Source: Candidatus Clostridium eludens (lineage in GTDB: Bacteria > Bacillota > Clostridia > Clostridiales > Clostridiaceae). From it: a DNA stretch of 64,000 nt. This document shows, in pieces, positions 8,863 through 44,482 of the stretch. How positions within the stretch are numbered: the first letter of the stretch is position 1; every line of letters starts with the position of its first letter. Position numbers and translations under genes: made by a program. The notes below the pieces were generated by a model. It searched no databases. It worked only from the letters and a program-made list of their open reading frames with translations, and was not told where the DNA came from. The stretch lies in NCBI RefSeq assembly GCF_045310515.1, contig NZ_JBJHZX010000011.1:1-64000 (forward strand). Direction: 5' to 3'.

Positions 8863-8994
8863 AGAACTTATCCAGACCCGTAGCACCTCTTATCCCCCCA
8901 CTTTGATAGAAAAGCAGAGAACCAAAATTTTTAATTTTGTGTGAATCGCTTTCACAGAGTGCGATGGGGGTTAGCAATGATAGCGATGGGATAA
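8863..8994 (+). repeat. copy A of a structured 3'-of-gene repeat family (core GAACTTATCCAGG.GC.TAGCA.TGCTTATC.CCC...TTAGCAATGGTAGCG....GGATAAA)
   Basis: Lies directly after the flavodoxin stop. Outer CTTATCC/GGATAAG complementarity. Carries a roughly 50-nt insertion relative to copies B to D. Confidence 0.7.
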
Positions 8995-9035
8995 ATTTAT
9001 TAAATCAATATTTTTTAAAACAGGAGTGATTAAAT

Positions 9036-10166
9036 ATGGAAAAATCAAAAGTTTATTTTACAGATTTTCGTACAAAACTTGGAGAGGGTCTGCCTACCAA
9101 GCTAAAAAGGCTGATTAAAGATGCGGGTATCGGACAAATCGACATGGATAATAAGTTTGTTGCTATCAAGATGCACTTTGGTGAACTTGGTAACTTAAGT
9201 TATCTTCGTCCAAATTATGCTAAAGCTGTAGCCGACATGGCGAAAGAGCTGGGCGGTAAACCTTTTCTGACAGACTGCAACACCCTATATCCTGGCAGCC
9301 GTAAGAATGCCCTTGAGCATCTAGAGTGTGCATGGGAAAATGGATTCACTCCACTTACAGTAGGATGCCCTGTTATTATTGGAGATGGATTAAAGGGGAC
9401 CGATGATATCACGGTACCTGTAATAGGTGGCGAATATATAAAAGAGGCTAAAATCGGCCATGCAATCATGGATGCCGATGTGTTTATCAGCTTAACTCAC
9501 TTCAAAGGTCATGAAATGACTGGTTTTGGTGGTGCCATTAAGAATATTGGAATGGGCTGCGGTTCCCGTGCTGGAAAAAAGGATCAGCATATTAATGGTA
9601 AACCTCATATCATAGAGGAGAAATGCCGAGGATGCCAAAGATGCCATCGTGAATGTGCTAATAATGGTCTGTTGTTTGACGATGTAAAAAAGAAAATGAC
9701 TATCAACACAGAAGATTGTGTTGGTTGCGGTCGCTGCCTAGGTGCATGTAATTTTGATGCAATTCAGTTTGCAAACTGGTCAGCCAGTGAAGAACTGAAC
9801 TGCCGTATGGCAGAATACACCAAGGCAGTAGTATATGGTCGTCCTTGCTTCCACATTTCTCTTGTGGTAGATGTTTCACCTAACTGTGACTGCCACAGCG
9901 AAAATGATGCTCCCATACTTCCTAATCTAGGTATGTTCGCTTCATTTGATCCTTTGGCATTGGATCAGGCATGTGTGGATGCCTGTATGAAGGCTGCCCC
10001 ACTGGCTAATAGTCAGCTGTCCGATAACATATCAGAACCCCATTTTGTTGATCATCATGATCACTTTACTAATTCCACACCGGAATCAGAGTGGCGTACT
10101 TGTCTTGACCATGCAGAAAAAATAGGAATCGGTAATCGTGAATATGAACTGATCATTGTTAAATAA
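9036..10166 (+). CDS. DUF362-domain protein with 4Fe-4S ferredoxin-type clusters
   Basis: CRGCQRCHREC and CVGCGRCLGAC motifs inside a DUF362 scaffold. GC is markedly higher than in neighbouring genes. Confidence 0.75.
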   Translation: MEKSKVYFTDFRTKLGEGLPTKLKRLIKDAGIGQIDMDNKFVAIKMHFGELGNLSYLRPNYAKAVADMAKELGGKPFLTDCNTLYPGSRKNALEHLECAWENGFTPLTVGCPVIIGDGLKGTDDITVPVIGGEYIKEAKIGHAIMDADVFISLTHFKGHEMTGFGGAIKNIGMGCGSRAGKKDQHINGKPHIIEEKCRGCQRCHRECANNGLLFDDVKKKMTINTEDCVGCGRCLGACNFDAIQFANWSASEELNCRMAEYTKAVVYGRPCFHISLVVDVSPNCDCHSENDAPILPNLGMFASFDPLALDQACVDACMKAAPLANSQLSDNISEPHFVDHHDHFTNSTPESEWRTCLDHAEKIGIGNREYELIIVK

Positions 10167-10324
10167 AATATGTACCTCCATTAGAAGATATGGATGAATA
10201 TATTTTATAAAAATTAATTTGTTATTGACAAGGTAATCAAAAAATTATATTATTAATTATAACTTAAATAGTATGTTTTAGTAGTTGTCCATTTAAAAGT
10301 TAACGCTTAAAATTTAATATGAAA

Positions 10325-10440
10325 TTTCTTATCAAGAGTAGTGGAGGGACTGGCCCTATGATGCTCGGCAACCTGAGTATGTTTATCAATATATTCAATG
10401 GTGCTAATTCCAGCAGATGAAATCTGAAAGATGAGAGACA
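10325..10440 (+). ncRNA. SAM-I (S-box) riboswitch aptamer
   Basis: TCTTATCAAGAGTAGTGGAGGGACTGGCCCTATGATGCTCGGCAACC...GGTGCTAATTCCAGCAGATGAAATCTGAAAGATGAGAGA matches the S-box consensus nearly position for position. Putative promoter TTGTCC-17-TAAAAT at 10285-10313. Confidence 0.9.
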
Positions 10441-10451
10441 AACGGAACACA

Positions 10452-10497
10452 ACTTCCTATATAGTTTCTCTATATAGGAAGTTTTTTATTTGATTAA
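10452..10497 (+). terminator. riboswitch expression-platform terminator
   Basis: aacttcctatatag-tttctc-tatataggaagtt hairpin followed by TTTTTTATTT. Confidence 0.8.
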
Positions 10498-10597
10498 CTA
10501 GATAAACTGGAGGTCAAGTCTTGTTTACTATAGAGTTTTGTGTAGTCTCTGTAGTATATGGACTTTGACCTCTTTATTTATTATATGAAATGCCTGG

Positions 10598-10682
10598 AAG
10601 AACTTATTCAGGTGCCCAGTAGTGCTTATCTCCCATTTTCAAGAAGATGGAAGTGTTGGTAATAGCAGCGTTTGGATAAATA
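10598..10682 (+). repeat. copy B of the 3'-of-gene repeat family
   Basis: gaagaacttattcaggtgcccagtagtgcttatctccc...ggtaatagcagcgtttggataaa aligns with copies A, C and D. Confidence 0.7.
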
Positions 10683-10711
10683 ATATTATATACCTGACCG
10701 GTAAACCGGAG

Positions 10712-10748
10712 GTTACATTATTAAAAAGATGTAACCTTTTTTTGTATA
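10712..10748 (+). terminator. intrinsic terminator (ggttacatt-loop-aatgtaacc plus a T7 run)
   Basis: Seen directly in the sequence. Confidence 0.6.
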
Positions 10749-10932
10749 AATTATCAAAGGCATATATACAAATTGTCTTATAAATATTCATAGTCAAATT
10801 GTGCTAGGAGGTGTTCTAATGTTAGAAGAAGATTTGATACAATAATAGGTTGTTAAGTTGAACTGCTTAAAAAAGATAATCTGTGTCAGAAAAATTATTG
10901 AATAAATAAAAGTGAAAAATAGGGGGAAAGAA

Positions 10933-12009
10933 ATGAAAAAAAATAAAAAGTTTAAATTATCTTACTATGTAATTATGTTAATTTTATCCACAGCATTTTT
11001 TGCGGCGTGCTCAAATACAACAACATCTAATCAAAAGTCTGATGCTGTAAATGAACAAAATGCTTCAAATAATAAGAATTCTGCTAGTTCTGGTGTTACT
11101 GATCCTATTGATGGGAAGTCTGTTCCTTCACTTAAAGGTAAGAAGATAGGAGTTGCCATAGAAGGAATAAGCAATAATTGGGAGAGGCAAGCTTATCAAG
11201 CTCAAATTGATCGAATAAAACAATTGGGGGGAACAGCCATTGAAGTTAATGGCGAGCGTAATACTCAAAAACATATTTCTGATATTGAGAATTTGATTAC
11301 TCAAAAGCCTGATGCAATCATTAAGCAACTTGGAGATGCAAAAGTATATGCACCTGTACTTAAGAAGGTACGTGCTGCAAATATTCCGCTTTTTACTGTT
11401 GATCATCCTAGTGAAGATAGTATTACTAATGCTTCATCAGATAATTATTTTATTGGTGAAGCATTAGCACGTAAAATGTTTGAAGATATAGGTGGAGAAG
11501 GTAAAATTGCAGTTTTTAATGGATTTTATGGAGAGAGAACTTTAGCTATTCGTTATGATGAAATGAAATATGTGGCTAAGGATTATCCTAAAATTCAGTT
11601 TATCCAACCTGAGCTGCAGGATATTATTGATGGTACTATAGAAGATTCAAAAAAGAAGGTTCAAGATTTGTTAATAAAGTATCCTAATAAGGGAGATTTA
11701 AAAGCTATCTGGGCAGGGTGGGATATTCCTGCAATTGGCGCTTCTCAGGCTTTAGAGGCAGCTGGGAGAACTGATATTAAAGTTTATGCGGTTGATGGAG
11801 ATCCTAGTGCACTGAAAGTACTTGCGGATAAAAATTCTCCTTTTGCTGCAGATATGGCCCAACAGCCTTATAAAATTGGTCAGGCTGCAGTGGATTCTGC
11901 TGCACGATATTTAAATGGTGAAACAGTACCAAGGTCAATTTACGTAGATCCATTACTTGTTACGAAGGATAATGTACAAGATGCAGAAAAGATTTTATTT
12001 AAAAAGTAA
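10933..12009 (+). CDS. ABC transporter substrate-binding lipoprotein (periplasmic-binding-protein type 1, RbsB/LsrB-like, CUT2 family)
   Basis: Signal peptide with lipobox (AFFAAC). Type-1 PBP fold. ATG at 10933 is preceded by AGGGGG, whereas the ORF track starts at an upstream GTG. Confidence 0.8.
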   Translation: MKKNKKFKLSYYVIMLILSTAFFAACSNTTTSNQKSDAVNEQNASNNKNSASSGVTDPIDGKSVPSLKGKKIGVAIEGISNNWERQAYQAQIDRIKQLGGTAIEVNGERNTQKHISDIENLITQKPDAIIKQLGDAKVYAPVLKKVRAANIPLFTVDHPSEDSITNASSDNYFIGEALARKMFEDIGGEGKIAVFNGFYGERTLAIRYDEMKYVAKDYPKIQFIQPELQDIIDGTIEDSKKKVQDLLIKYPNKGDLKAIWAGWDIPAIGASQALEAAGRTDIKVYAVDGDPSALKVLADKNSPFAADMAQQPYKIGQAAVDSAARYLNGETVPRSIYVDPLLVTKDNVQDAEKILFKK

Positions 12010-12090
12010 ATAAGAATATCAAGACAGAGGGTAGGAATATTTTCTATTCTCTGAATAATAATTTGTGTGTAAAGGAGGGTGTATTAGTTT

Positions 12091-13614
12091 ATGAATGAAA
12101 AATATATTTTAGAAATGATAAATATAGAAAAAGAATTTCCAGGTGTTAAGGCTCTTCAAAATGTTACTTTGCAAATACGTAATGCAGAAATACATGGTAT
12201 TGTAGGAGAAAATGGAGCAGGAAAATCTACATTGATGAAAATACTGGCAGGAATTTATAATCAAGATAGTGGACAAATAAAATTTGATGGTGAAATACAG
12301 GAACACTTAACAACAAAAATGGTAGAAAAGTTGAAAATTCATTTCATTCATCAGGAAAGGTATATAGTCCCTTACCTTACTGTAGCAGAATCTTTATTTT
12401 TGGGCATTGAACCTACACATTCTATATTTAAGTTGGTAAATAGAAAATCCTTAAAGCAAGAAGCTGAAAGACTTTTAAAAGAAAAATTAGGAATTTTTAT
12501 TCGGGGAAATAAATTAATGGGAGATTTAACTGTAGGAGAACAGCAATTAGTTCAAATTTGTCGTGCATTATTGCATAATCCTAAAGTAATTGTTTTTGAT
12601 GAGCCCACTGCTGTACTTTCAAAGCGTGAAGCAGATGGGTTATTTGAAATTATAAGAGAATTGGGAGAGAAAATTTCAATTATTTATATATCTCACTATT
12701 TAGGAGAAATTTTAAATCTGTGTCATAGAATTACGGTATTACGTAATGGTAGAAAAGTTAAAACTATGGATTCTAATGGATTGAATATTAAGGACATTGT
12801 TGTAATGATGATTGGACGAAACATAGAAAAACAGTTTCCGCCTAAAAGAAGGTGGAAGAAAGAAATCTTGTTGAATGTGAAAGGATTAACTCATATTACA
12901 CATTTTAAGGATGTTACTTTTCAAGTTCACGCTGGTGAAATAATTGGCATAACGGGTTTAATAGGTTCCGGACATATTGATGTAGGCAAAGCTATTTATA
13001 ATAATAATGGGATAATTAGTGGTACCATAGAATTTCAGTGCCATCAATTATCCAATAACAAACCTGAGAAAGCGGTGGCTTCTGGAATGGCATATGTACC
13101 AGAGGATAGACGAAATCTAGGTGTAATTCAAAACATGTCTGTGAGAGAAAATATAATGCTTTCGTACTTAAAAAGAGTAAGCAGAAAAGGTGTAATTAAT
13201 ACTAGGGATGAACATAATAAAGTGGACGATATAATAAAAAAATTAAGGATTAGTACTCCAAATCAAGAAATATCAGCAGGACTGCTGAGTGGTGGAAACC
13301 AACAAAAGGTTGTAATTGGAAAGTGGCTAAACAGTGAATCTAAGTTGTATATACTAAATGAACTAACTTCAGGTGTAGATATAGGTGCTAAGGTTGAAAT
13401 TTATTCTATCATAAATAATTTAGCCGGGAATGGTGCAGGAATAATTTTAATTTCACAGGACATACAAGAATTGGTTGGCTTATCTCATCGTATTTTTGTA
13501 ATGTACCGCGGCAAAATTGTAAATGAGTTTCATGGGAACAATACTACAACAGATGAAGTATTTGTTTCTATGATGGGGGGGAATAAAAATGACTCAGTTA
13601 ACATCAAACATTAA
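12091..13614 (+). CDS. ABC transporter ATP-binding protein with duplicated ATPase domains (RbsA/MglA-like)
   Basis: Walker A GENGAGKST. 507 aa with two ABC domains. Confidence 0.85.
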   Translation: MNEKYILEMINIEKEFPGVKALQNVTLQIRNAEIHGIVGENGAGKSTLMKILAGIYNQDSGQIKFDGEIQEHLTTKMVEKLKIHFIHQERYIVPYLTVAESLFLGIEPTHSIFKLVNRKSLKQEAERLLKEKLGIFIRGNKLMGDLTVGEQQLVQICRALLHNPKVIVFDEPTAVLSKREADGLFEIIRELGEKISIIYISHYLGEILNLCHRITVLRNGRKVKTMDSNGLNIKDIVVMMIGRNIEKQFPPKRRWKKEILLNVKGLTHITHFKDVTFQVHAGEIIGITGLIGSGHIDVGKAIYNNNGIISGTIEFQCHQLSNNKPEKAVASGMAYVPEDRRNLGVIQNMSVRENIMLSYLKRVSRKGVINTRDEHNKVDDIIKKLRISTPNQEISAGLLSGGNQQKVVIGKWLNSESKLYILNELTSGVDIGAKVEIYSIINNLAGNGAGIILISQDIQELVGLSHRIFVMYRGKIVNEFHGNNTTTDEVFVSMMGGNKNDSVNIKH

Positions 13615-15605: not shown

Positions 15606-15657
15606 ATTATTGTATTTGTTTTACGTGATATTGCTATTATATAAGGAGGTTAAATTA

Positions 15658-16143
15658 ATGGGAAAAATTGTTTTTGCAGGTGGTTGTTTCTGGGGGGTTG
15701 AAGCCTATTTTAATACAGTAAAGGGAGTGCTTTTTACTAAAGTTGGATATGCTAATGGTAATACGGAAAATCCAACATACGAACAAGTATGTAAACATAC
15801 AACAGGCTTTGCAGAAGCTTGCTATATAGAATATGATGACAGCATTATAACACTAGAACAATTACTTGGTGACTATTGGAAAATAGTTGATCCTACAATA
15901 AAAGATAGGCAGGGTCACGATATAGGAAATCAGTATCGCACAGGTATTTATTATTTTAATGAAAAAGATGTTGAAATAATAAAAAAATCTAGAGAGAGTG
16001 AACAAGAGAAATATGAGAAAGTTATTGTAACTGAAATAGAACCTCTAAAAAATTTTTATGATGCAGAGGAATATCATCAAAAATATTTAGATAAAAATCC
16101 AAATGGGTACTGTCATATTCCAAAAGAATTATTAATAAAATGA
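15658..16143 (+). CDS. msrA: peptide methionine sulfoxide reductase MsrA
   Basis: [18 protein letters not shown] active-site motif. RBS AAGGAGG before ATG 15658. Confidence 0.9.
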
Positions 16144-16157
16144 GGCTATTCTTAGAT

Positions 16158-16262
16158 TCAAGTGGGGGATAAGCACTGCTGCGCACCTGGATAAGTTCTT
16201 CTCCTAAAGGATAACGTATTCTAAGTGCTAAAGACACTAAGAATACTGTTAATAAGGTTCAG
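16158..16262 (-). repeat. copy E (reverse orientation, truncated) of the 3'-of-gene repeat family
   Basis: The reverse complement is nearly identical to 44338-44440 (gaaccttattaacagtattcttagtgtctttagcacttagaatacgttatcctttagg.gaagaacttatccagg.gcg.agcagtgcttatcccccactt). Sits directly 3' of the minus-strand gene 16338-17480. Confidence 0.75.
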
Positions 16263-16337
16263 CTGGAGAGAGTCATCCTTATAAGCAAACTCCATCTGAA
16301 CCTAAGAATCACTTGATTGAGAACATATATTGATACA

Positions 16338-17480
16338 TTAGTTACCTGTATTTTCGGTGGTTCCACCTGTTGATGTATTTGTATTTCCAGTGGTTCCATT
16401 TGTTGATGTGTTCGTGTCTGTATTTTTAGTGGTTCCATCTGTGGATGTATTTTCATCTGCATTCTTAGTTGTTTCGTCTGTAGATGTATTTTTATCTGTA
16501 TTATCAGTGGTTCCATCTGTGGATGTCTTTGTATCTGTATTTTGGGTGTTTCCGTCTGTAGATGTTTTTGTATCTGTATTTTTGGTAGTTCCATCTGTAG
16601 ATGTATTTGTATTTTTGGTATTTTCATCTGTGGATGTCTTTGCATTCCCATTTTTAGTTGTTCTACCTGTAGATGTATTTTTACCTGATGAACCCGTTGC
16701 ATCAGTGGATTGTTCTTGAACAGTGGTTTTTATATCGGGAGTTTGTGTATTAGTAGGTATTCTTTTAAAATAAGATTTTACTAAAACACCGGCAATCATA
16801 ACTAAAATGATTGATACAATTGTTATTATTGCCTTTTTACTCTTACTAGGTCTCTTATTTCTATTGGGTACTTTTCTATTTCTTTTATTTATTGTTTTTT
16901 CAGTCCTTGATACTTTATCCATAACTATTGTAAAGTCATCTTTTTTATTAGGAACCATTGTCTTAGTTTTTTTCGTTCTGTTTAAGATTATTTCATTTAT
17001 ATTTTTAGGTATATTAAACAATAAGGCTAGTATCCCATTTTGTTCTACAGAGTCTATCTCCTTAAAATTTTCAGGTGATCTAATTGTAATAACAGGCTTA
17101 TTATACACTCCATGTTGATTTTCTACATATAATGTAACTGAAAATTTATCACCCTTACCTAAAAAAGGTATATAGATATCCAAAATGCTATCTTTTATTG
17201 AAGAATCAAATTTTAAACCTTTTGTTATTTTGGCATCTGTAATCCTTAAGTTATTTTGTGGACTTTGTATATTTAGAGTTAGTTCATGAATTATTTTGTT
17301 TGATATATTGCTAACAGTAATAATGTATGCACGAATCTTTTTACTGTTTATTTCCATAGGTATAGCATTGCCTATGTTACATAGTATTCTGGGTGCTAAA
17401 TTTTTATAATAATCTAACAATAAACCAGATATAAATGATATTATTATAGTTATAATTGCAGTTTTAATAATGCTTATCAT
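16338..17480 (-). CDS. membrane-anchored hypothetical protein with a C-terminal Thr/Asn/Asp-rich 13-aa tandem repeat array
   Basis: Two TM helices. Repeats of the TSTDGTTKNTDTK type are encoded by a 39-bp tandem repeat at about 16350-16700. Start is probably the internal ATG, preceded by AAGGAAG. Confidence 0.55.
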   Translation of the reverse strand: MISIIKTAIITIIISFISGLLLDYYKNLAPRILCNIGNAIPMEINSKKIRAYIITVSNISNKIIHELTLNIQSPQNNLRITDAKITKGLKFDSSIKDSILDIYIPFLGKGDKFSVTLYVENQHGVYNKPVITIRSPENFKEIDSVEQNGILALLFNIPKNINEIILNRTKKTKTMVPNKKDDFTIVMDKVSRTEKTINKRNRKVPNRNKRPSKSKKAIITIVSIILVMIAGVLVKSYFKRIPTNTQTPDIKTTVQEQSTDATGSSGKNTSTGRTTKNGNAKTSTDENTKNTNTSTDGTTKNTDTKTSTDGNTQNTDTKTSTDGTTDNTDKNTSTDETTKNADENTSTDGTTKNTDTNTSTNGTTGNTNTSTGGTTENTGN

Positions 17481-18367
17481 ATTAATTTTCGCTTCCTTAT
17501 TTTTTACCATTATACAACTAAATTATAAAGTAGATAGATATTTGTGTCAAATTTAAAGATTGGTTACTATGAAATGTAATGATTGAATATCTCACTTATA
17601 TTCAAGGAATGCTTCAAAGTATAAAGAAGTGTAATTATGAAAGTTATAGTTTAACTTAATAATAATTTTAAACTTGAAATTAACTTCTAGATTGGTTTCA
17701 GGTTTTATTTTGGTTTGTAAAATATAAAAAGCAAAGGGGCATAAAGATTTACCTTACACCAATATAAATAATTTAATATCTAGTTATAATCCCTTAAATC
17801 ATATTAAATATGATTTTTAAAACCATAACTAAACAGTTCACCACCCATATTAATGATTCGTTCGACCATACAACATACCTACACAGCTATATACAACCCT
17901 CTAGCTGTATATAACCATCTCAGCACCCTGGATGATCTTCGCTGGACCCTATACAATAATTTGGGATCCCATTATAATCAACATAATTAACCATAATGAA
18001 ACCTTTCATCAACATATAAGATCTACCTTAAACCGTATATACAAGATTTTTAACTCTTAATGTAAATCCTACAAAAATTTGTGATTAAACATATTTTTAT
18101 TATCTACTCTACTAAAATTATTAAAAAAACATATACAGTTTAGGGCTAGCTTATATATGCTTTTTAGCATATATAAGCTTTGGCTCAATCCTCATGTCCT
18201 TTACATTATTTAATATGCCCTAGCATAAAAAAATAATTCAAAAATTTTTATGTAATTTAATCCAAATATTTAAAACTTACTATTTAGCAGGAATTTTTTC
18301 TTTTTTAGAGAATTTTAATGTTATATAATTGCAAGTACAATGGCGTTGGTAATCTAGTTTAAAAGGG

Positions 18368-19518: not shown

Positions 19519-19860
19519 ATGGATACTAGTTCTTCTAGTGACAACATCAATAAAGAAAATGCTGAAAATTTATATGAATTTGAACAGCCTATATATTGTC
19601 CATATTATCGACCAATAAATTATGAATACGTAGATGCCATAGATACAGATTCAGATGATGAGTATTTTGACGATAATGATTTTGATGATTTTGATCTTGG
19701 ATATAGGCACGGAAGTGGTAGAAGGCGCAGACGCAGAAGACACAGACGTAGGAGGCATAGACCTTTATCTTGCCATCATAAATCTTCTCGTTACAGACCT
19801 TGCCCATTCTACTCAAGACCATTTGAACTATATTATGGATGTTGTGATGACTGGTATTAA
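19519..19860 (+). CDS. 113-aa protein with an acidic patch, a poly-arginine tract and a Cys/Tyr-rich tail
   Basis: Strong RBS GGAGG. DDEYFDDNDFDDFD, then RRRRRRRHRRRRHR, then CPFYSRPFELYYGCCDDWY. Confidence 0.6.
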   Translation: MDTSSSSDNINKENAENLYEFEQPIYCPYYRPINYEYVDAIDTDSDDEYFDDNDFDDFDLGYRHGSGRRRRRRRHRRRRHRPLSCHHKSSRYRPCPFYSRPFELYYGCCDDWY

Positions 19861-19861
19861 A

Positions 19862-19944
19862 AACTTATCCAGGCGCATAGTACTGCTTATCTCCCGCTTT
19901 GAAGAAGGTGGGAGTATTAGCTAATTACTGCGTTGGGATAAGGG
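19862..19944 (+). repeat. copy C of the 3'-of-gene repeat family
   Basis: Begins 2 nt after the stop of the 19519-19860 ORF. acttatccaggcgcatagtactgcttatctcccgctt...gcgttgggataag. Confidence 0.7.
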
Positions 19945-20059: not shown

Positions 20060-20370
20060 CATCAAAGAAAAAATGATGATGGAGACAAGTAAAAAAAATA
20101 TTTCACCAACAGTGAGCTTGGGGATAGTGTGAACCCAGTGGCAGAGTTTTTTTGAATAACACTCCGGAGATGCAAACTGAAATATTTGTAGACTGTACTT
20201 TAAACAAAATGTTTGATACAGGTTCAGTAGATAAAGTAGGGGAGTCGTATTCCATGCGTTATTTGGATACCAGTAGTAGCTGGAAAGAGACCAAATATGG
20301 TAAATTAGGTGGCACCACGGATAAGCGTCAATTCGTCCTATTATTAAGACGAATTGACGCTATTTTTATA
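20060..20370 (+). ncRNA. T-box riboswitch leader of asparagine synthetase
   Basis: T-box-like AAATTAGGTGGCACCACGG at 20302-20320, followed by a perfect terminator gcgtcaattcgtc/gacgaattgacgc plus TATTTTTA. The roughly 330-nt leader is open in the asnB frame, which explains the artificially long ORF-track call. Confidence 0.6.
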
Positions 20371-20388
20371 TCTAAGGAGGAATATAAT

Positions 20389-21978
20389 ATGTGTACAATT
20401 ATGTGTTATACGGGAACAGACATAAAACATGAAAAATTTGTAGGGGCATTGCAGAGAACTGAATCCAGGGGACCAGATATGATGGGGATTCTCACTTTAC
20501 CATCTGGTATTTTGGGGTTCCAAAGACTCTCTATTATGGATTTAAGTTTTAGCGGAATGCAGCCATTTACAAGGAAAATGGATGCCTCCATATGTAACGG
20601 TGAAATTTACGGCTTTCGTGAAATTAAAAAGGAACTAATAGAAAAGGGACATAAGTTTATTTCAGATAGTGATTGTGAAATATTACTTCCTATGTATTAT
20701 GAATATGGACTAGATATGTTTTCAAAATTAGATGCAGAATATGCAGCGATTATCTACGATGGAGAAAAGGACAGTTACATTGCAGCACGGGATCCCATTG
20801 GAATTCGTCCTTTATTCTATGGCTATTCTGGAACAGGTAAAATCATATTTGCAAGTGAGGCAAAAAATTTAATTGGTCTTACAGATAAGATTATAGCGTT
20901 TCCACCAGGACATTATTATGCTGACGGTAAATTCACATGTTATTGTGATATTGCAGCAACAGAGGGTGATTATTGCAAGGACGACTTGAAAGTTATTTGT
21001 AGTGAAATTCATGATAAATTGGTAACTGGTATAGAAAAACGTATGGATGCTGATGCTCCTGTAGGTTTCTTGTTAAGTGGTGGTTTAGACAGCTCATTAG
21101 TATGTGCAGTCGCTCAAAAAATGTATCCTGAAAAACCAATTAGAACATTTTCTATAGGTATGACTGAAGATGCAATTGACTTAAAATACGCACAGGAAGT
21201 TGCAGATTACATTCACAGTGATCATACCGTTGTGTACATGATAAAAGAAGAAGTGCTTGCATCACTTGATGAGGTTGTTAAAATTCTTGGAACATATGAT
21301 ATTACTACAATAAGAGCAAGTATTGGAATGTATTTGATTTGCAAGAAAATACATGAGATTTCTGATATCAGAGTGCTTCTGACTGGTGAAATTTCTGATG
21401 AATTATTTGGCTATAAATATACTGATTTTGCCCCAAGTGCAGAAGAATTTCAAAAGGAATCACAAAAGAGAATACGGGAGCTTTATATGTACGATGTACT
21501 TCGTGCAGACCGCTGCATCAGTTCAAATTCTTTAGAAGCAAGGGTACCATTTGGAGATTTAGATTTTGTAAAGTATGTTATGGCCATCGACCCTGAAAAG
21601 AAACTAAACAAATACAATATGGGTAAATACCTTTTGAGACATTCATTTGAAGGTGATTATCTGCCACGTAATATTTTATATCGTGAAAAAGCAGCATTTA
21701 GTGATGCTGTAGGGCATTCTATGGTAGACTATTTAAAGGAATATGCAGAAACATACTATGGTGATGAAGAATTTGAAAAATCATGTGAAAAGTATAAATA
21801 TCACTCTAAACCATTCACAAAAGAATCATTATTATACAGAGAAATTTTTGAAAAATACTATCCAGGACAAGCGGAAATGATAGTAGGATTCTGGATGCCA
21901 AACAAAGCATGGGAGGGCTGTGACGTAGATGATCCTAGTGCCAGAATATTATCCAATTATGGTGCCAGCGGTAAATAA
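20389..21978 (+). CDS. asnB: asparagine synthetase, glutamine-hydrolysing (class II GATase N-terminal Cys plus PP-loop SGGLDSS)
   Basis: MCTIMCYTG gives a Cys2 nucleophile. LLSGGLDSSLV PP-loop. RBS AAGGAGG before ATG 20389. Confidence 0.85.
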   Translation: MCTIMCYTGTDIKHEKFVGALQRTESRGPDMMGILTLPSGILGFQRLSIMDLSFSGMQPFTRKMDASICNGEIYGFREIKKELIEKGHKFISDSDCEILLPMYYEYGLDMFSKLDAEYAAIIYDGEKDSYIAARDPIGIRPLFYGYSGTGKIIFASEAKNLIGLTDKIIAFPPGHYYADGKFTCYCDIAATEGDYCKDDLKVICSEIHDKLVTGIEKRMDADAPVGFLLSGGLDSSLVCAVAQKMYPEKPIRTFSIGMTEDAIDLKYAQEVADYIHSDHTVVYMIKEEVLASLDEVVKILGTYDITTIRASIGMYLICKKIHEISDIRVLLTGEISDELFGYKYTDFAPSAEEFQKESQKRIRELYMYDVLRADRCISSNSLEARVPFGDLDFVKYVMAIDPEKKLNKYNMGKYLLRHSFEGDYLPRNILYREKAAFSDAVGHSMVDYLKEYAETYYGDEEFEKSCEKYKYHSKPFTKESLLYREIFEKYYPGQAEMIVGFWMPNKAWEGCDVDDPSARILSNYGASGK

Positions 21979-23654: not shown

Positions 23655-23716
23655 TCAATTACTTGGAGTATTTTTTATGCAAATGCACAAACTTTAGGTG
23701 TAGCAGTAAGGGTTAC
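23655..23716 (+). repeat. orphan copy of the SASP promoter/5'-region (about 85% identical to 40759-40820)
   Basis: caattacttggagtattttttatgcaaatgcacaaactttaggtgtagcagtaagggttac versus caattacctagagtattttttatagaaatacacaaactttaagtgtagcaataaaggttac. No SASP coding sequence follows. Confidence 0.6.
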
Positions 23717-32748: not shown

Positions 32749-32801
32749 GTCTACATTGAATCACATGTATCAGGTTATGGTACTTATAAGTTATTTTGGT
32801 C

Positions 32802-33740
32802 TTAAATTTCTTTCATTGCAGAATCAAATGCATTTTGAATAGCTGTTTCCTGGTCTTGAGTAATTGTTCCAGCAGATACCAAACTATCTAAAGCATTTGC
32901 AAATGGGTTGTTTGTTCTGTCCGTTTGTGACTGAGATGACTTCACCGCAGAATCAAATGCACTTTTAATAGCTGTCTCTTGATCCTGTGTGATTGTTCCA
33001 GCAGATACTAAACTATCTAGAACGGATGTGCCAGGGTCTCCAGTTGAGTTCTGTGGCTGGGTGGAGTTCATAGCAGATTTAAATGCATTTTGAATAGCTG
33101 TTTCCTGGTCTTGAGTAATTGTTCCAGCAGATACCAAACTATCTAAAGCATTTGCAAATGGATTATTTGTTTTATCAGTTTGTGCCTGAGGTGACTTCAT
33201 AGCAGAATCAAATGCACTTTTAATAGCTGTCTCTTGATCCTGTGTGATTGTTCCAGCAGATACTAAACTATCTAAAACGGATGTGCCAGGGTCTTCAGTT
33301 GAGTTCTGTGGCTGGGTGGAGTTCATAGCAGATTTAAATGCATTTTGAATAGCTGTCTCTTGGTCTTGAGTAATTGTTCCTGAAGATACTAGACTATCTA
33401 ATGGATTTGTAGGTCTTCTATTGTATACTGCTGATGGTTGGGTTGACTGGTTTCTAGATTGAAAAATACTAGTTATAGTATTTGCTTGATCCTGAGTAAT
33501 TGTTCCTGCTGACACCAAACTATCTAAGGAACTACTGATGCTGTTGGCAATATTTGTTTCTCTCGGCATTAAGTTATTTGCTGTTTGCATCCCACATTGA
33601 CTTAATTCTATTGAATCTTGTCCATATTTTTTATAATCATTTATTTCTGTATAGTTGTCACCATCTGTATTTTCAGTATTGTTTTGAGTATATAAACTAT
33701 ATAAATTACTTGTGCTTCTAGTATCATATATTGTGTTCAT
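32802..33740 (-). CDS. hypothetical protein with six copies of a 42-aa repeat (LDSLVSAGTITQDQETAI..AF.SAM)
   Basis: Alternating A and B repeat types, encoded by long near-identical DNA repeats of about 250 bp. No signal peptide. RBS GAGGAGG. Confidence 0.6.
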   Translation of the reverse strand: MNTIYDTRSTSNLYSLYTQNNTENTDGDNYTEINDYKKYGQDSIELSQCGMQTANNLMPRETNIANSISSSLDSLVSAGTITQDQANTITSIFQSRNQSTQPSAVYNRRPTNPLDSLVSSGTITQDQETAIQNAFKSAMNSTQPQNSTEDPGTSVLDSLVSAGTITQDQETAIKSAFDSAMKSPQAQTDKTNNPFANALDSLVSAGTITQDQETAIQNAFKSAMNSTQPQNSTGDPGTSVLDSLVSAGTITQDQETAIKSAFDSAVKSSQSQTDRTNNPFANALDSLVSAGTITQDQETAIQNAFDSAMKEI

Positions 33741-34061
33741 TGGTATTCCTCCTCTATATTAATTTCTTGTTAATCTAACTATAACTAGAAATTGTTGTAT
33801 AAATGTCAAATGATTATGTGAAAATTATGTGATTTATGTGATGGTAACTATATTTTATATAATCTTTTTGTTGTGTTAGACTATACTTTTAAATAAGATA
33901 CAGTTATATCTATTTATAATTAAATAGATAAATTATATTCTCTATTTCTTTTGTGTTAAAGTATTAAATGCAGTTTTTTATTTACTTATGATATATAATG
34001 TGGTAACATAAATTATATACAAAATATAATTTATTAAAATATGCAAAAAGGGGAATATAAT

Positions 34062-36735: not shown

Positions 36736-36752
36736 GAAAACTATTGAAGTGA

Positions 36753-38927: not shown

Positions 38928-38990
38928 ATAAAGGCTTAGAAATGATTTCACAGTCTAAATAATAGTGATATGATGGGGGAGTGGTATTTA

Positions 38991-39527: not shown

Positions 39528-39599
39528 AAAAGCTGATTTTTGTATAATCAACTTTTAATGGATGGAAGAGGGGCTTTCTACTTTAATATGTGTATGAAA

Positions 39600-39998
39600 C
39601 TACAGCATGTCACATGAAGTGTCAACCTTACTATACTGTGACACTTTTTTTGCCCACTTACCCAATTGCATTAAAATAGGTACTAAATCATCTACCAGCT
39701 CTGTGGAGGAATATTCCACACGCAGAGGCATAACATTATATTGCTTTCGGTTCACCAGTCCGTCAGCTTCCAATTCTCTCAAAGAACTGGCAAGCATTGT
39801 ATTCGTAATACCATGCACTTTCTGTTTTAGTTGGCTGTAACGTATTGGTCCATCGTTTTTTAGAACACACAAAATCTGAAGTTTCCACTTACCACCAATA
39901 ATCTTTATAGCATTGGATAAAGGACATTCTTCCATGCACGGACATATACCACGCAGCTCTTCATCTATATTTTTAGCAGTTGTTTTCTCTGTAATCAT
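39600..39998 (-). CDS. HxlR-family transcriptional regulator
   Basis: CPxxxxIxxIGGKWK HxlR signature. Confidence 0.8.
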   Translation of the reverse strand: MITEKTTAKNIDEELRGICPCMEECPLSNAIKIIGGKWKLQILCVLKNDGPIRYSQLKQKVHGITNTMLASSLRELEADGLVNRKQYNVMPLRVEYSSTELVDDLVPILMQLGKWAKKVSQYSKVDTSCDML

Positions 39999-40120
39999 AT
40001 TTTTCTTACCTACCCACATTTTTTTGCGTTATTTACAACATATTCTTGCAGTAGTAAAATTATATCACATAGCAATTACAGAGTAAATATAATATTGATA
40101 TTGAGGAGGATTTTCTTATT

Positions 40121-40519
40121 ATGGAAGAAGTCTTAAAATTTTTACATGAAAATAGCCCGTTTTATTTTGCAACTGTTGACAAAACAACACCAAAGGTTCG
40201 TCCGCTGGGGCTTTGCCTGGAACATAACGGAAAGATTTATTTTGGCATAGGAACATTCAAACAAGCATTTAAACAATTACTGGCAAATCCACAAGTTGAA
40301 ATCTGTACAACAAACAAAAACAGTGAATGGATTCGCCTGCACGGTACTGCCATTGTGGATGACAATGATGCTGTGTTGGAAAAAGCATTTGCAGCAATAC
40401 CCTTCCTAAAGAATATGTACAATGAAGAAACCGGCAGGAAACTTGGTTTGTTTTATCTTAAAGATGCTGTTGCTGAAATCGCCGATATGAAGGGCGGATT
40501 CAAAGAAATTAAATTATAA
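40121..40519 (+). CDS. pyridoxamine 5'-phosphate oxidase-family flavin-binding protein
   Basis: Split-barrel FMN-binding family. Divergent from hxlR. Confidence 0.7.
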   Translation: MEEVLKFLHENSPFYFATVDKTTPKVRPLGLCLEHNGKIYFGIGTFKQAFKQLLANPQVEICTTNKNSEWIRLHGTAIVDDNDAVLEKAFAAIPFLKNMYNEETGRKLGLFYLKDAVAEIADMKGGFKEIKL

Positions 40520-40840
40520 TACATTTTGATAATCATTTTAGGGCTGTCTTTAGGACAGTCTTTTATTTCTAGTTAACTTTCTTATCACATACAATCTGAG
40601 CCATAATCAATTGTGGTTTGAAATACTTTCCCATACATGACATCAAACAGTTTTTCATAAAATTTTTGTTCTGATAGGATAATATTTTTTAGATGTGAAC
40701 AACTCCTAATTATAAATCACATAAATTTCACATGGTTATTACATATTGTAACTACAATCCAATTACCTAGAGTATTTTTTATAGAAATACACAAACTTTA
40801 AGTGTAGCAATAAAGGTTACTATGTGAAGGAGTGTTTATT

Positions 40841-41038
40841 ATGGCACGTAACAGTAATAATTTAGTAGTACCAGAAGCTAGAGAAGCTTTGAATAGGTTT
40901 AAGATGGAGTCAGCTCAGGAAGTTGGAGTAAATTTAAAGAATGGCTACAATGGAGATTTAACTGCTAGGGAAGCTGGCTCAATAGGCAGAAATATGGTTA
41001 AGAAAATGATTGAAGCTTATGAGCAGGACTTAAAGTAA
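40841..41038 (+). CDS. ssp: small acid-soluble spore protein, alpha/beta type
   Basis: ARNSNNLVVPEAREALNRFKMESAQEVGV..DLTAREAGSIG is the canonical SASP alpha/beta sequence. A forespore-type promoter candidate (GAAATA-18-CAATAAA) lies upstream. Confidence 0.9.
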   Translation: MARNSNNLVVPEAREALNRFKMESAQEVGVNLKNGYNGDLTAREAGSIGRNMVKKMIEAYEQDLK

Positions 41039-41048
41039 CAATGTGACA

Positions 41049-41085
41049 AAAACCTGTACCCTAATAAGTAGGGTGCAGGTTTTAT
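41049..41085 (+). terminator. intrinsic terminator after ssp
   Basis: aacctgtaccct-aataag-tagggtgcaggtt followed by TTAT. Confidence 0.65.
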
Positions 41086-41258
41086 GTTGTAATTACAAGT
41101 GCATCAGTAATTATTGAAATTTTTCGCCTTAATAAGGAGGAATTTTTTCTTTTTTTGGAGAAATATTAATCCGATATATATTATACAAGTATAATTTACA
41201 GTGAGTGTATTTTTATGTCAAATTGTAACAATAGAATATATAGTCGGGAGGAAAATCA

Positions 41259-41687
41259 ATGAAAAGCTATGAGAATATAATTAACGAGAGGGTACATAAG
41301 TATTACTGGGAAGATGATATAAATTGTGCAACTACGGTTTTAAAAACTTTAGCACAAATATATGAAATAGATTTAAATCCCCAAGTTATAGATTCTGCAA
41401 TTGGAATGCATGGTGCAGGAAAATTTGGTGCACAATGTGGATTAGTAGAGGGTTCTCTTATGTTTATAGGTATCTTTGGAAGAAAACTTAAATACAAAAA
41501 TGAAGAAATTGTAGATTATTGCTACAGCTTTGCAAATGAATTTCAAGATAGCTTTGGAAGTATAGTTTGTAAGGATTTGCGTTCTCAAGGTTTTAAATCA
41601 GATGACCCACCTCATATGTGTGAAGAAATCACTAAAAAAGCAATTGAATTTACACATAATTATGTTAATAGGATAAAAGAAAATTAA
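41259..41687 (+). CDS. C_GCAxxG_C_C-family putative redox-active protein
   Basis: Cys-containing GAQCGLVEG-type motif and about 140-aa size. Confidence 0.45.
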   Translation: MKSYENIINERVHKYYWEDDINCATTVLKTLAQIYEIDLNPQVIDSAIGMHGAGKFGAQCGLVEGSLMFIGIFGRKLKYKNEEIVDYCYSFANEFQDSFGSIVCKDLRSQGFKSDDPPHMCEEITKKAIEFTHNYVNRIKEN

Positions 41688-41862
41688 GTAAGGTAGATTA
41701 AACTTCTATATTTTATGTATAATAATTGTATAAAAAATTTAACTACAAAAATATATCTTTAAAAATGGGTTACAAGACAAATATAGTAGTAAAGCTATAG
41801 AAAGTCAAAATTAATTATTGAGTTAGTTTTAAGAAGATTATATTTAGGAGGGTGATATTGAG

Positions 41863-42579
41863 ATGAATACTTTAATTAAAATAGGAATAATTGGCGACTT
41901 CAATGGAGAATCTCCGACACACAAAGCAACTAATGAAGTATTAAAGTATTGTGCAGATTATATAGATACTGATTTAGAAATACAGTGGCTGCCAACAGAA
42001 TCACTAGAAAATGATGTGGAAGTGGTCGTTAATAAGGATGGATTATGGTGTGCCCCAGGTAGTCCATATAACAGTATGGAGGGGGCGTTAAATGCTATTA
42101 AATTTGCAAGAGAAAATAATTATCCATTTATAGGAACTTGTGGTGGCTTTCAGCACGTTATTTTGGAGTATGCAAGAAATGTTTTAAATTTTAAAGATGC
42201 TCAACACGCAGAATATGACCCGTATGCATCCAAATTGTTTATTTCTGCTTTAACTTGTTCTTTAGTTGGGAAAATACTCAAAATCTTCATAGATAAGAAT
42301 TCAAAGACTTATGGATTTTATAATAAAACTGAAATTGAAGAACATTATTATTGTAATTTTGGTCTTAATACTGAATATGAAAAATTAATTGATGAAGGTG
42401 GTTTAAAAGTAGTAGGTACTGATGAACTCCACGAAGCGAGAATAGTTGAATTACCTGAAAATAACTTTTTTGTAGCTACGTTATTTGTTCCTCAGCTTAA
42501 TTCTTCACCTGAAATACCACATAAACTTATAATTGAATTTTTAAGGTCTGCTAAAGAATTTCATTTATCAAGAAAGTAA
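41863..42579 (+). CDS. class-I glutamine amidotransferase-like protein (stand-alone CTP-synthase C-terminal-domain homolog)
   Basis: GTCGGFQHVILEYARNVLNFKDAQHAEYDP resembles the PyrG glutaminase-domain Cys loop. Confidence 0.6.
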   Translation: MNTLIKIGIIGDFNGESPTHKATNEVLKYCADYIDTDLEIQWLPTESLENDVEVVVNKDGLWCAPGSPYNSMEGALNAIKFARENNYPFIGTCGGFQHVILEYARNVLNFKDAQHAEYDPYASKLFISALTCSLVGKILKIFIDKNSKTYGFYNKTEIEEHYYCNFGLNTEYEKLIDEGGLKVVGTDELHEARIVELPENNFFVATLFVPQLNSSPEIPHKLIIEFLRSAKEFHLSRK

Positions 42580-42614
42580 CTTAAATTTGCAAAATAAATA
42601 TTTAGGAGGATTAT

Positions 42615-44231
42615 ATGAATCTTGTTGTTGGTAGTATTAATTTTTTACGTAAAAGCAGGCATGCAAAATTAATTGCTTCTATAGTTATAGCAGTAATTTT
42701 GGCGATATCTGTTTATGCATATTTACCTGTTCTGTCACTAAGATTTTCATCATTATGGTATTGTTTAATTGTAGTTTCTATAATAATAGAACTTGTTTTT
42801 TGGAAGCGTAGTACATGGATTAAGTTACTTCCTGCATTAATAATCGCTATATATGTTATTTTAGTAGTAGCTTCTTCGCCTCTATTTAGGTCATATAGTT
42901 ATAGAAACCTGCTTCCACCCATAGAAGAAAAAAATTTTTCTTCAAGTATTAATCCAGTAGATATTACGCAAGTGCCAACTGTAAATCCAGACTATGCACG
43001 CCTATTGGCTGATAAGAAGATAGGTCAAGATGCTACACTAGGTAGTAGGGCAGAACTTGGTGATTTGACACTTCAGAGTATAAACAATAAGTTGTATTAT
43101 GTAGCTCCATTGTTACATAGTGGATTTTTCAAATGGGCCGTAAATGGATCTACACCAGGTTATATAATGGTATCGGCTACTGATGATCAGGATGTAAAAT
43201 TGGTCACTAATTACAGTATTGTATATCAGCCTAAAGCATGGTTTGGACAAAATGCATCCAGAAAGATTTACACTTCAGGTAATGAATTTAAAGGATTTTG
43301 TGATATGACATTCGAGATAGATAATAGTGGTAAACCTTTCTGGACAGCCTCAATATACGAACATAAAATAGGTTTATCTGGAGTTAAAGTTATAGGTGTA
43401 GCAATATTAAATGCCACTACAGGTGAGGTGAAAAATTACTCCTTAAATAATATACCTACTTGGGTTGATAGGGTACAACCTGCAAGTGTTGTTAAGGACA
43501 ATATAGATTATTATGGTAAATATATACATGGCATTTTTAACTTTAGTGGTAATGATAAGTTCCAGACAACTTCTGATCTATCACTTATCTACAACAAAGG
43601 CAAATGCTACTTCTATTCTGGTATAACTTCAATTGGTAGTGACAGTTCAACTATAGGATTTACTCTTACAGATTCAAAAACAGAAAAAACAACAGAGTTT
43701 AAAATATCTGGTGCAACAGAAAATTCTGCTATGAAGTCTGCTGAAGGTAAAGTCCAAAATTTAAATTACAGTGCTTCATTTCCTGTACTTATTAATGTGC
43801 AAAATGTACCTACATATTTTACAACTCTTAACGATAAGACAGGCCTAACAAAGATGTTTGCTATGGTATCTGTGGTAAATTACAATATAGTTGGTGTAGG
43901 TAATTCAATACAAGAATGCCAGTCAAATTACATTGAAACATTATCAGAGAAAGGGAATTCATTAAATGAAAGTTCAGGAAGCATGAAATCTGTTAAAGGT
44001 ACTATAAATAGAATAGGATCGTATATAAATAATAATTCTACTTATTATACGTTTACGTTAAAAGAACAACCTAACAAAATATACTCAGCTTCACCACAAT
44101 TGTCAGCTAAATTACCACTTACAGGCATAGGCGATGCTGTAATTATAAAATATGTTGATACAAAGCAACCTGTTCAATCATTAAATTCTTTTGATAATTT
44201 ATCTATAACAGAAGTTAATACAGGTAAATAG
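42615..44231 (+). CDS. hypothetical membrane-anchored protein (three N-terminal TMs plus a large extracytoplasmic domain)
   Basis: Hydrophobic N-terminus. No recognisable catalytic motif. Confidence 0.5.
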   Translation: MNLVVGSINFLRKSRHAKLIASIVIAVILAISVYAYLPVLSLRFSSLWYCLIVVSIIIELVFWKRSTWIKLLPALIIAIYVILVVASSPLFRSYSYRNLLPPIEEKNFSSSINPVDITQVPTVNPDYARLLADKKIGQDATLGSRAELGDLTLQSINNKLYYVAPLLHSGFFKWAVNGSTPGYIMVSATDDQDVKLVTNYSIVYQPKAWFGQNASRKIYTSGNEFKGFCDMTFEIDNSGKPFWTASIYEHKIGLSGVKVIGVAILNATTGEVKNYSLNNIPTWVDRVQPASVVKDNIDYYGKYIHGIFNFSGNDKFQTTSDLSLIYNKGKCYFYSGITSIGSDSSTIGFTLTDSKTEKTTEFKISGATENSAMKSAEGKVQNLNYSASFPVLINVQNVPTYFTTLNDKTGLTKMFAMVSVVNYNIVGVGNSIQECQSNYIETLSEKGNSLNESSGSMKSVKGTINRIGSYINNNSTYYTFTLKEQPNKIYSASPQLSAKLPLTGIGDAVIIKYVDTKQPVQSLNSFDNLSITEVNTGK

Positions 44232-44337
44232 AAGATATGAACAAACAGTAATTTTGTTATAGCAAACAAGTATATAATTATCAAGTGATTCTTAGGTTCA
44301 GGTGGAGTTTGCTCATGAGAAATACTTTTCTCCATCT

Positions 44338-44482
44338 GAACCTTATTAACAGTATTCTTAGTGTCTTTAGCACTTAGAATACGTTATCCTTTAGGGGAAG
44401 AACTTATCCAGGCGCGTAGCAGTGCTTATCCCCCACTTTGGAGAAGTTGGGTGTTAGCAATGGTAGCGTTGTTCGGATAAAA
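44338..44482 (+). repeat. copy D (longest) of the 3'-of-gene repeat family
   Basis: Contains both the 60-nt extension shared with copy E and the full core shared with copies A, B and C. Confidence 0.75.

Follow-up and report, generated by a model that had tools for sequence, protein, structure and literature searches.

The stretch analysed here, positions 1 to 64,000 of contig NZ_JBJHZX010000011.1 of Candidatus Clostridium eludens (below, the window), carries five copies of a structured repeat, and the question that they raise is whether this repeat is a working part of the messenger RNAs around it or a piece of mobile DNA. An earlier note on the same sequence had taken it for a 3'-untranslated-region (3'-UTR) RNA module, a terminator-associated element similar to REP sequences or MITEs (small transposable elements with inverted repeats), or a family of small RNAs. 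Our results indicate that the observation was correct and that its explanation is ordinary, namely mobile DNA. We propose that the repeats are copies of a gene-less, non-autonomous, site-specific transposable element of the IS200/IS605-like type, that is, a palindrome-associated transposable element (PATE) moved in trans, and we give this reading a probability of roughly one half. That the element is mobile and site-specific is well supported; that it moves by the IS200/IS605 mechanism, which we propose by analogy, stands at about even odds.

The five-copy family is real, as three approaches agree. The pattern CTTATYCAGN6AGNAN3CTTATC matches the 64-kb window exactly five times, at 8867, 10603, 19864 and 44403 on the plus strand and at 16168 on the minus strand (below, copies A, B, C, D and E, respectively), against a chance expectation of 0.01 matches in dinucleotide-preserving shuffles. 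Repeat-finding on the window independently recovered the same family, and a covariance model of the core, built from 30 diverse cores and run with the filters off, found these five copies and none beyond. We also scanned species-representative genomes with the core pattern and listed at least 103 loci, at least 97 of which are genuine copies, while 6 of the 103 are chance matches in unrelated phyla; the element counts given below rest on these listed matches. The hosts are Clostridium ljungdahlii, C. ragsdalei, C. carboxidivorans, C. drakei, C. muellerianum, C. aciditolerans, C. aromativorans, C. luticellarii, C. lapidicellarium, C. moutaii, C. amylolyticum and several Clostridium metagenome-assembled genomes (MAGs), with a few copies from Garciella, Desulfosporosinus and a Peptococcales MAG.

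Alignment of the surroundings of all listed copies outlined a sharply bounded basic unit of ~150 nt. From 5' to 3', it comprises ATCAAGTGATTCTTAGG, a first hairpin (HP1, GGTTCAGATGGAG ... CTCCATCTGAACC), the linker TTAGAAGAA and a second hairpin (HP2), which is the previously described core and extends from CTTATCC to ...GCGATCGGATAAA; the element itself ends in ...GATCGG. The optional blocks have set positions: HP1 and HP2 may be separated by a 51-nt hairpin module, the HP2 tip may hold an insertion of ~51, 70 or 120 nt and, in some copies, the HP1 loop has repeated modules; the resulting elements are 150 to ~340 nt long. The ends, which 88 junctions at the 5' side and 96 at the 3' side define, are constant (5' ATCAAGTGATTC and 3' ...GGATAAA), and the flanks beyond them are unrelated between copies. 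Within a single genome, many copies show no or almost no differences in the regions displayed, and copies D and E of the window are 96% identical over their longest shared stretch, which suggests recent activity. Roughly 9 copies are truncated at the 5' side with an intact 3' end, against 2-3 truncated at the 3' side.

Two copies from Garciella (L078 and L066) depart from this plan. Their 5' part measures only ~35 nt, from ATCAAGT[GA]ATTCTTA... to GAGTTT[AG]CTT, and runs directly into the core, the 3' strand of HP1 being absent; the second of them ends in CGG↓ATATT (here and below, the arrow marks the junction) and not in ATAAA. These copies may represent a differently built subfamily.

The junctions follow an unusually clear rule. 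ATAAA or ATAAG stands immediately 3' of the element in about nine-tenths of 96 copies, each of its five positions being kept in 87-95 of them, and the 5' end reads ATCAAG (CTTGAT on the other strand) in 85-88 of 88. The 5' flank is unconserved except for a T at position -1, present in 59 of the 88 copies. A search for target-site duplications of 3-6 bp at all offsets found none, and the end profiles of the 88 and 96 junctions show unrelated termini in place of terminal inverted repeats.

Which of these bases came with the element can be read at codY. The filled site of C. ragsdalei (L096) consists of ...gagttgaagaag, the element (ATCAAGTGATTC......GCGATCGG) and ATAAAATAAAAAATACTAATT..., and the empty site of a relative (L106), whose CodY is 97% identical, reads ...gagttaaaaaag↓ATAAAATAAAAAATACTAATT... 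Two further species are also empty at this position, and the native site ATAAAA or ATAAAG is found as well in C. carboxidivorans, C. aciditolerans and Clostridium sp. BJN0013 (L107). Nearly all of 120 listed Clostridium CodY homologues are 258 aa long, and all 12 that were inspected end in ...DELKKIK. Since the native codons are ATA AAA, the ATCAAG of the left junction must have come with the element. By this comparison, the block ATCAAG...GATCGG was inserted immediately 5' of a pre-existing ATAAA. The filled codY keeps its ...KKIK end, as the first nine bases of the element, ATC AAG TGA, encode by coincidence or design the same I-K-stop as the native ATA AAA TAA. Another protein tells a similar story: the DUF364 protein upstream of one copy (L012) ends in ...VSVRI-SRDS, and its homologues are mostly 254-256 aa long, those of 254 aa ending in ...SVRV or ...TVRI, which fits a native stop codon that would have been the TAA inside A-TAA-A.

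Copies of the element have also landed in or beside one another. A diverged subfamily 2 lies nested and reversed in subfamily 1, with the junctions GG↓ATAAG-GTGATTC...CATCGG↓ATAAG (L032, L059, L090 and L099), and subfamily 3 (ATAAACAGAGTTCTTG...) stands directly on the terminal ATAAA of a preceding subfamily-1 copy at L094 and L078, and after a native AGATAAA at L001. In a metagenomic copy (L117), the stop codon of glgA lies inside the ATAAAC junction. To judge from these junctions, nested and tandem copies obey the same ATAAR rule as codY.

A different delimitation, in which the element would be GTGATTC...GGATAAA inserted 3' of ATCAAG, was considered at a paralogous site (L058) and is disfavoured by the native ATAAAA or ATAAAG of codY. 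For copy D of the window, the flanking 538-aa protein is 100% identical to an entry of Clostridium sp. WILCCON 0269, and its nearest homologue otherwise is merely 53% identical and allows no comparison with an empty site.

On the complementary strand, the element is laid out as 5'-TTTAT↓CCGATCGC...HP2...HP1...CACTTGAT↓-3', and the pentanucleotide that it encodes at its far end is TTGAT or, in other subfamilies, CTTAT and TTTAT. IS200/IS605-family elements transpose as single strands through a Y1 HUH transposase (TnpA). We propose an assignment to the IS200/IS605/PATE type because a flank motif, an end motif and hairpins inside both ends are found together with neither terminal repeats nor target duplication. 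The element would then move as single-stranded DNA through TnpA, or by a closely similar mechanism, and the hairpins would serve as the recognition structures of the transposase. A precedent is ISGst2, an IS605-family element of Geobacillus stearothermophilus, which has TTTAT as its transposon-adjacent motif and an encoded motif at its right end (10.1101/2023.03.14.532601). The IS605-family elements of this species have PATE-like derivatives devoid of open reading frames (ORFs), and excision has been reported from either template (10.1101/2023.03.14.532601).

Several observations weigh against this proposal. The codY locus is just one empty site at the DNA level, and its native ATAAA-ATAAA would also permit an insertion 3' of ATMAA followed by one substitution, a less economical path. 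In the ~0.9 Mb of fetched loci, no tnpA was found by a regular expression or by phmmer with a possibly inexact IS608 TnpA query, and no tnpB by a crude zinc-finger regular-expression test. No autonomous element with these ends was found in the viral or metagenome scans: two scans of viral contigs returned two further gene-less copies plus chance matches, and a metagenome scan designed to catch an autonomous element while skipping ordinary copies returned one more gene-less copy. HP1 and HP2, including the tip hairpin P3 of the latter, are dissimilar in sequence, and the left-end and right-end hairpins of IS200/IS605 elements usually resemble each other. The flank motif forms part of the closing stem of HP2, as one of its arms, and does not lie a few bases outside the hairpin. 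The strand that folds better (in 74 of 80 copies, see below) is opposite to the one that an IS605-like mechanism would make active. Finally, according to GC skew, the strand on which the core was first described (below, the core strand) is the G-rich one in 60 of 95 loci and the proposed active strand in 35; the rule of IS608 and ISDra2, by which the active strand lies on the lagging-strand template, would lead one to expect the opposite bias. The strand of distant genes gives the same split of 60 versus 35, transcription and replication being inseparable here, and the replication-strand result is weak, confounded with gene orientation and selection.

Other searches around mobility gave side results. 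A blastn search of a plasmid collection returned no match to the element, and orphan left ends at L019 and L045, considered as signs of an autonomous element, were merely truncated relics. On an IMG/VR contig (L105, 4690-4850), a decayed 5'-truncated copy directly follows a stretch that resembles, by eye, the N-terminal part of an IS5/IS1182-type transposase, and this may be an insertion into another mobile element. Known elements of other kinds (group II and group I introns, retrons, IS91 and IS110) were provisionally set aside on their end rules, for reasons of size, unconserved flanks or sequence misfit.

The most serious rival to the transposable-element reading makes the element, from the outset or secondarily, a cis-acting RNA module of host mRNAs, in 3' UTRs and operon spacers, whose hairpins with their G.U pairs would block 3' exonucleases or offer a processing site for RNase III or another enzyme. 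Such a role, which has been proposed for REP and BOX-type repeats, is compatible with the element also being mobile; we consider it possible but unlikely. The evidence that bears on it comes from the structure and from the genomic context.

The consensus minimum-energy fold consists of two adjacent long stem-loops with abutting bases, which bring the ends of the element together. RNAalifold on the 30 diverse cores folded HP2 into one irregular stem that comprises, from base to tip, CTTATCC/GGATAA, an internal loop, CGC/GCG, TA/TA flanked by a G-G mismatch, CA/TG, TGCT/AGCA and the tip hairpin CCCCCAC...GTGGGGG; in this long stem, CGCGTAGCA pairs with TGGTAGCG. CTTATCC/GGATAA, as outer arms, and CCCCC/GGGGG, as inner ones, pair and covary as had been claimed. 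A separate hairpin around GTAGCA, assumed earlier, is better explained as part of the long stem of HP2; a local GTAGCA hairpin and a pseudoknot were both dropped in favour of that stem on the basis of RNAalifold and the pair counts. In the alignment, the HP2 pairing holds in 88.8% of cells, compared with 31-47% when the partner columns are slid; 36 cells show double changes against 12.3 in shuffles, and none of 500 shuffles reached the observed covariation score. The pair 14-78 alone occurs as CG (16 times), GC (7), UG (3), AU (1) and UA (1). HP1 covaries in two stem pairs (GC/AU/CG, then UA/CG). Compensatory covariation therefore persists in HP1 and HP2 when diverse copies are aligned, and both hairpins are evolutionarily maintained. 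A by-eye comparison of the internal CTTATC with the end motifs across subfamilies gave no convincing covariation pattern.

The core strand is the better-folding one of the two in 74 of 80 unique copies (mean -69.7 versus -60.7 kcal/mol for its complement) and carries invariant G.U pairs, as an RNA module would lead one to expect, but this asymmetry is a property of a few master sequences and does not amount to 80 independent observations. The HP2-only relics speak for the RNA module as well, since copies A, B and C still fold, B and C with scores of 74-78 bits. On the other side, no named family matched the repeat, in line with the earlier note: at the Rfam gathering thresholds only a SAM riboswitch and a T-box leader passed in the whole window, and around copy D a search up to E = 10 gave a best match of E = 0.7, with all such matches outside the core.

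Next, we studied the position of ~100 listed copies relative to ORFs of at least 90 aa called around each of them. Tandem genes flank 40 copies in sense and 15 in antisense, divergent genes flank 18 and convergent genes 11; with the upstream gene as the reference, 55 are in sense and 37 in antisense, and with the downstream gene, 63 and 32. The preference for sense placement is real (~3.4 standard deviations for 40 versus 15, by our arithmetic) but moderate. It agrees with an RNA module, and yet the orientation is far from obligatory, as the 15 antisense copies and the 18 between divergent genes attest; the claim that the repeat always lies 3' of a co-oriented gene does not hold in general. 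Many copies occupy short operon spacers, a few bases past one stop codon and 13-40 nt before the next start, where they evidently do not stop transcription. This favours an RNA module and, together with the absence of any predicted terminator-like site inside copy D, contradicts the association with terminators. The neighbouring genes have nothing in common, which counts against the RNA module, as does the lack of an Rfam match.

The crowding of copies behind stop codons has a simple explanation at the DNA level: the target ATAAA contains TAA, and the first bases of the element supply a stop codon. The element provides the stop codon of the upstream ORF in 12 of the 55 co-oriented cases; 7 of these end in ...IK-stop (ATC AAG TGA) and 5 in ...S(S/R)DS-stop (A TCA AGT GAT TCT TAG), so that insertions reshape the C-termini of proteins, the tail S(S/R)DS having been gained at L012, L047, L063, L077 and L001. 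Insertions inside genes would be removed by selection. An insertion into the last codons would be nearly harmless, the element supplying a stop within 3-6 codons, and the TAA-containing target is expected to be abundant at gene ends. If the element is transcribed along with host operons, or if its hairpins act on the mRNA, these would be by-products. The RNA-centred 3'-UTR module is thus mostly replaced by the insertion rule. The family of small RNAs is disfavoured, as no promoter or terminator is tied to the unit in copy D. The REP/MITE-like reading came closest of the three, being right about a multi-copy, gene-less and structured element with sharp ends and wrong about the terminators. The element behaves like the ends of a mobile element, an outcome that the earlier note had itself named as telling against its interpretation.

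Two further rivals would make HP2 or the unit as a whole the substrate of another system: HP2 as the site of an undescribed cassette-like system of Clostridia, similar to attC, or the units as orphan guide-RNA genes of TnpB. Either would need a dedicated enzyme that reads the HP2 hairpin, and we see a slim chance that one of the two is true.

For the first, HP2 would be a folded single-strand recombination site for a tyrosine recombinase, comparable to attC or to the attP hairpin of CTX phage, with the crossover at the hairpin base GG↓ATAAR, a circle carrying GG-ATCAAG and integration at ATAAR-like secondary sites. Much of the structure accommodates this. The basal inverted repeat CTTATCC/GGATAAG holds the junction, an unpaired spacer AGG stands opposite ATC, the inner helix has conserved mismatches and the tip varies from ~20 to >140 nt. 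An imperfect direct repeat of the core flanks the unit (ATCAA/ATAAA, or ATAAG/ATAAG), its left part deriving from the element and its right part from the target; head-to-tail tandem units exist at L094 and L078, and the fold brings the two ends of the element together at the hairpin junction. The junction, however, does not fit the attC consensus GTTRRRY, and the copies occur dispersed among ordinary operons, one by one or at most two in tandem, with no arrays beside an integrase. No recombinase or integrase was noticed beside any copy, although the neighbouring ORFs were not systematically annotated. Integrons are hardly known from Firmicutes. We regard an attC-like site as improbable.

For the second, the element would be a PATE that also encodes an omega RNA, the guide of a TnpB-type nuclease, and a transcript of the opposite strand running through HP1 and past ...CACTTGAT would join the scaffold to a guide taken from the flanking DNA. 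The geometry of flank and end motifs fits this, TTTAT being identical to the flank motif of the TnpB2 of ISGst2, the end region of the element is highly structured, and PATEs often encode omega RNAs (10.1101/2023.03.14.532601). Against it, the fold of the opposite strand is the weaker one, Rfam gave no match to the element (at the gathering score for both strands of the window, and up to E = 10 around copy D), the crude test detected no tnpB-like ORF in the loci, and HP1, the would-be scaffold, is the part most often lost. An omega RNA strikes us as quite improbable. A riboswitch, an independent small RNA gene or a short interspersed retroelement spreading through RNA is very improbable: the structure is conserved and covarying and 5'-truncated copies outnumber 3'-truncated ones (~9 versus 2-3) as they do in retrotransposition, but there is no Rfam family, no promoter or terminator tied to the unit and no reverse transcriptase seen nearby, the unrelated neighbouring genes make a common ligand or regulon implausible, and the short DNA target, the missing duplication and the rule kept by nested and tandem copies point to integration at the DNA level.

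Within the window, the copies differ in how much of the element they keep. Copy D (44280-44476, plus strand) is the only full-length one; it runs from ATCAAGTGATTC to ...GTTCGG, scores 82.9 bits with the covariance model and belongs to the length class with 123 nt of 5' part plus the core. Its HP1 lies at ~44289-44345, the optional 51-nt hairpin module at ~44346-44399 and HP2 from 44403. The adjoining ATAAA (44477-44481, plus strand; TTTAT on the minus strand), which would be the target-derived motif 3' of the insertion point, also pairs with CTTATCC (44403-44409) and closes HP2. Copy E (16157-16317, minus strand), truncated at the 3' side, gives a partial covariance match of 25.3 bits. Its 5' end is intact (ATCAAG, 16317-16312), followed by HP1, by the 51-nt module and by the 5' strand of HP2 as far as a break within the tip hairpin P3. 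The broken side extends to the 3' end of msrA (15610-16143, plus strand), and the start of the copy lies 20 nt past the TAA stop (16340-16338) of the gene of a Thr-rich repeat protein. D and E share ~157 nt (44280-44438 and 16160-16317) in two pieces that are 96% and 87% identical. The shared 5' extension with its own hairpin, reported at 60 nt, exists but measures ~120 nt, and it is the normal 5' half of the element, HP1 plus the 51-nt module. Hence D is a complete copy, and A, B and C are 5'-truncated.

Copy A (8853-8995, plus strand) retains from the 3' strand of HP1 and the linker only the trace AAACCTTAAAAGAA, carries a 51-nt insertion in the HP2 tip that recurs in many other copies, and ends with GATGGG followed by ATAAA (8991-8995). 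It lies between a flavodoxin gene (stop at 8840) and a DUF362 gene (start at 9036), both labels being confirmed by Pfam. Copies B and C consist of HP2 alone: B (10597-10680, plus strand; 78.2 bits) ends with GTTTGG and ATAAA (10676-10680), and C (19861-19942, plus strand; 74.4 bits) with GTTGGG and ATAAG (19938-19942). Copy C starts 1-3 nt after the TAA stop (19858-19860) of an ORF with an Arg tract and lies upstream of a promoter-like sequence and the T-box leader of asnB. The repeats were said to start 0-100 nt after the stop codon of a co-oriented gene; this is so for A, C, D and E (1-48 nt) and not for B, which lies ~430 nt beyond the end of the DUF362 gene (10166), between two terminator-like hairpins, the first of which follows a SAM riboswitch (10326-10437) and the second of which lies at ~10709-10747. 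Both terminators around copy B are our reading of the sequence.

The neighbourhood of copy B and copy E has features of its own. The SAM riboswitch (87 bits) has by our reading its own terminator at ~10511-10580, and no plausible SAM-regulated gene follows it: after copy B and the hairpin at ~10709-10747 comes, ~165 nt later, the gene of a Peripla_BP_4 sugar-type binding protein (10912-12009), and msrA (15610-16143) is the last gene of the operon. Perhaps the riboswitch lost its gene in a rearrangement connected with the element, or else it may be an RNA that acts on its own. The Thr-rich protein gene (16338-17510, minus strand) contains at least 8 tandem repeats of 39 nt (13 codons) within 16337-16720 and has no Pfam match. 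Beyond copy C, the T-box leader (20067-20343; 95.9 bits, with a gathering score of 93) precedes an asparagine synthase gene (20374-21978; Asn_synthase and GATase domains). The listed start of this ORF, 20152, overlaps the leader, and translation probably begins at the ATG near 20389 that follows AAGGAGG.

Other repeats of the window lie apart from the element. Six copies of a unit of ~126-129 nt at 32797-33527 form a 255-nt super-repeat, 95% identical between copies, and probably belong to a minus-strand gene of a repeat-domain protein; two tandem copies of a 176-nt unit, 86% identical, are found at 60537-60889. A 61-nt sequence (CAATTACTTGGAGTATTTTTTATGCAAATGCACAAAC...) at 23656-23716 recurs 17 kb away at 40760-40820 with 87% identity, and beside the second copy, at 40712-40758, lies a 47-nt inverted match to 33791-33837; these may mark a regulatory or leader region held in common, or a further family of small repeats. 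Terminator-like hairpins (CTAGAGTG-AAAAA-CACTCTAG followed by a T-run) recur at 44508-44549, 52822-52867 and 63779-63824, and one pair of them is a 46-nt inverted match with 85% complementarity.

If the transposable-element reading is true, industrially important acetogens harbour a well-populated family of gene-less elements resembling single-stranded-DNA transposons, so built that insertion at the end of a gene would be nearly harmless. In annotation, their copies create apparent conserved structured 3'-UTR motifs, and they alter protein C-termini (by adding SSDS, or with IK-stop retained). Genome instability is predicted to concentrate at the ATAAA sites of gene ends, even without a cognate enzyme; a cognate TnpA/TnpB, if it exists, would provide a ready-made targeting system for Clostridium through the TTTAT flank motif. 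For the genome of C. autoethanogenum, uncharacterised intergenic assembly gaps of 180-215 bp have been listed (PMC4022347). Some of these gaps may be copies of the element.

Finally, we compared the element with known systems; our literature search found no description of this repeat. BOX of Streptococcus pneumoniae and REP/BIME of enterobacteria are short, gene-less, multi-copy and intergenic, are often co-transcribed with their neighbours, contain optional modules that fold into stable stem-loops, and spread in an uncertain or trans-acting manner. The element resembles them in this general description. It differs in an insertion site that is exact to the base, 5' of ATAAR; a REP, moreover, is a single palindrome of 20-40 nt with a GTAG head, linked to a RAYT, and the element spans 150-340 nt with two unlike hairpins, although GTAGC is present on both arms of HP2. 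Classical MITEs such as Correia and RUP, which derive from DDE transposons such as IS630, are likewise small, gene-less, multi-copy, intergenic and able to form RNA hairpins, but they have terminal inverted repeats and target-site duplications, both of which we looked for in the element and neither of which we found. Like attC, the element has an imperfect hairpin with the junction inside its basal inverted repeat, an internal loop and mismatches that are conserved, a variable tip (0, +51, +70 or +120 nt), a position 3' of co-oriented ORFs and a short core directly repeated on both sides of the unit. The attC core G↓TTRRRY (boxes RYYYAAC and GTTRRRY) does not fit the arms CTTATCC and GG↓ATAAR, and the element, unlike attC, has no cassette ORF and no arrays beside intI, is dispersed, and has the extra hairpin HP1 in its unit. 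The closest match is with the PATEs of ISGst1 and ISGst5 of G. stearothermophilus, which like the element lack terminal inverted repeats, target duplication and an ORF and occur in many copies in a Firmicute host. The likeness extends to a fixed flank pentanucleotide on one side, where the TTTAT of the element is identical to the ISGst2 motif, to a similar motif encoded at the other end and to hairpins just inside both ends; one further difference is that the hairpin modules of the element vary within and between the stems. We class the repeat as a new family within a known type of element; its insertion rule is unusually clear.

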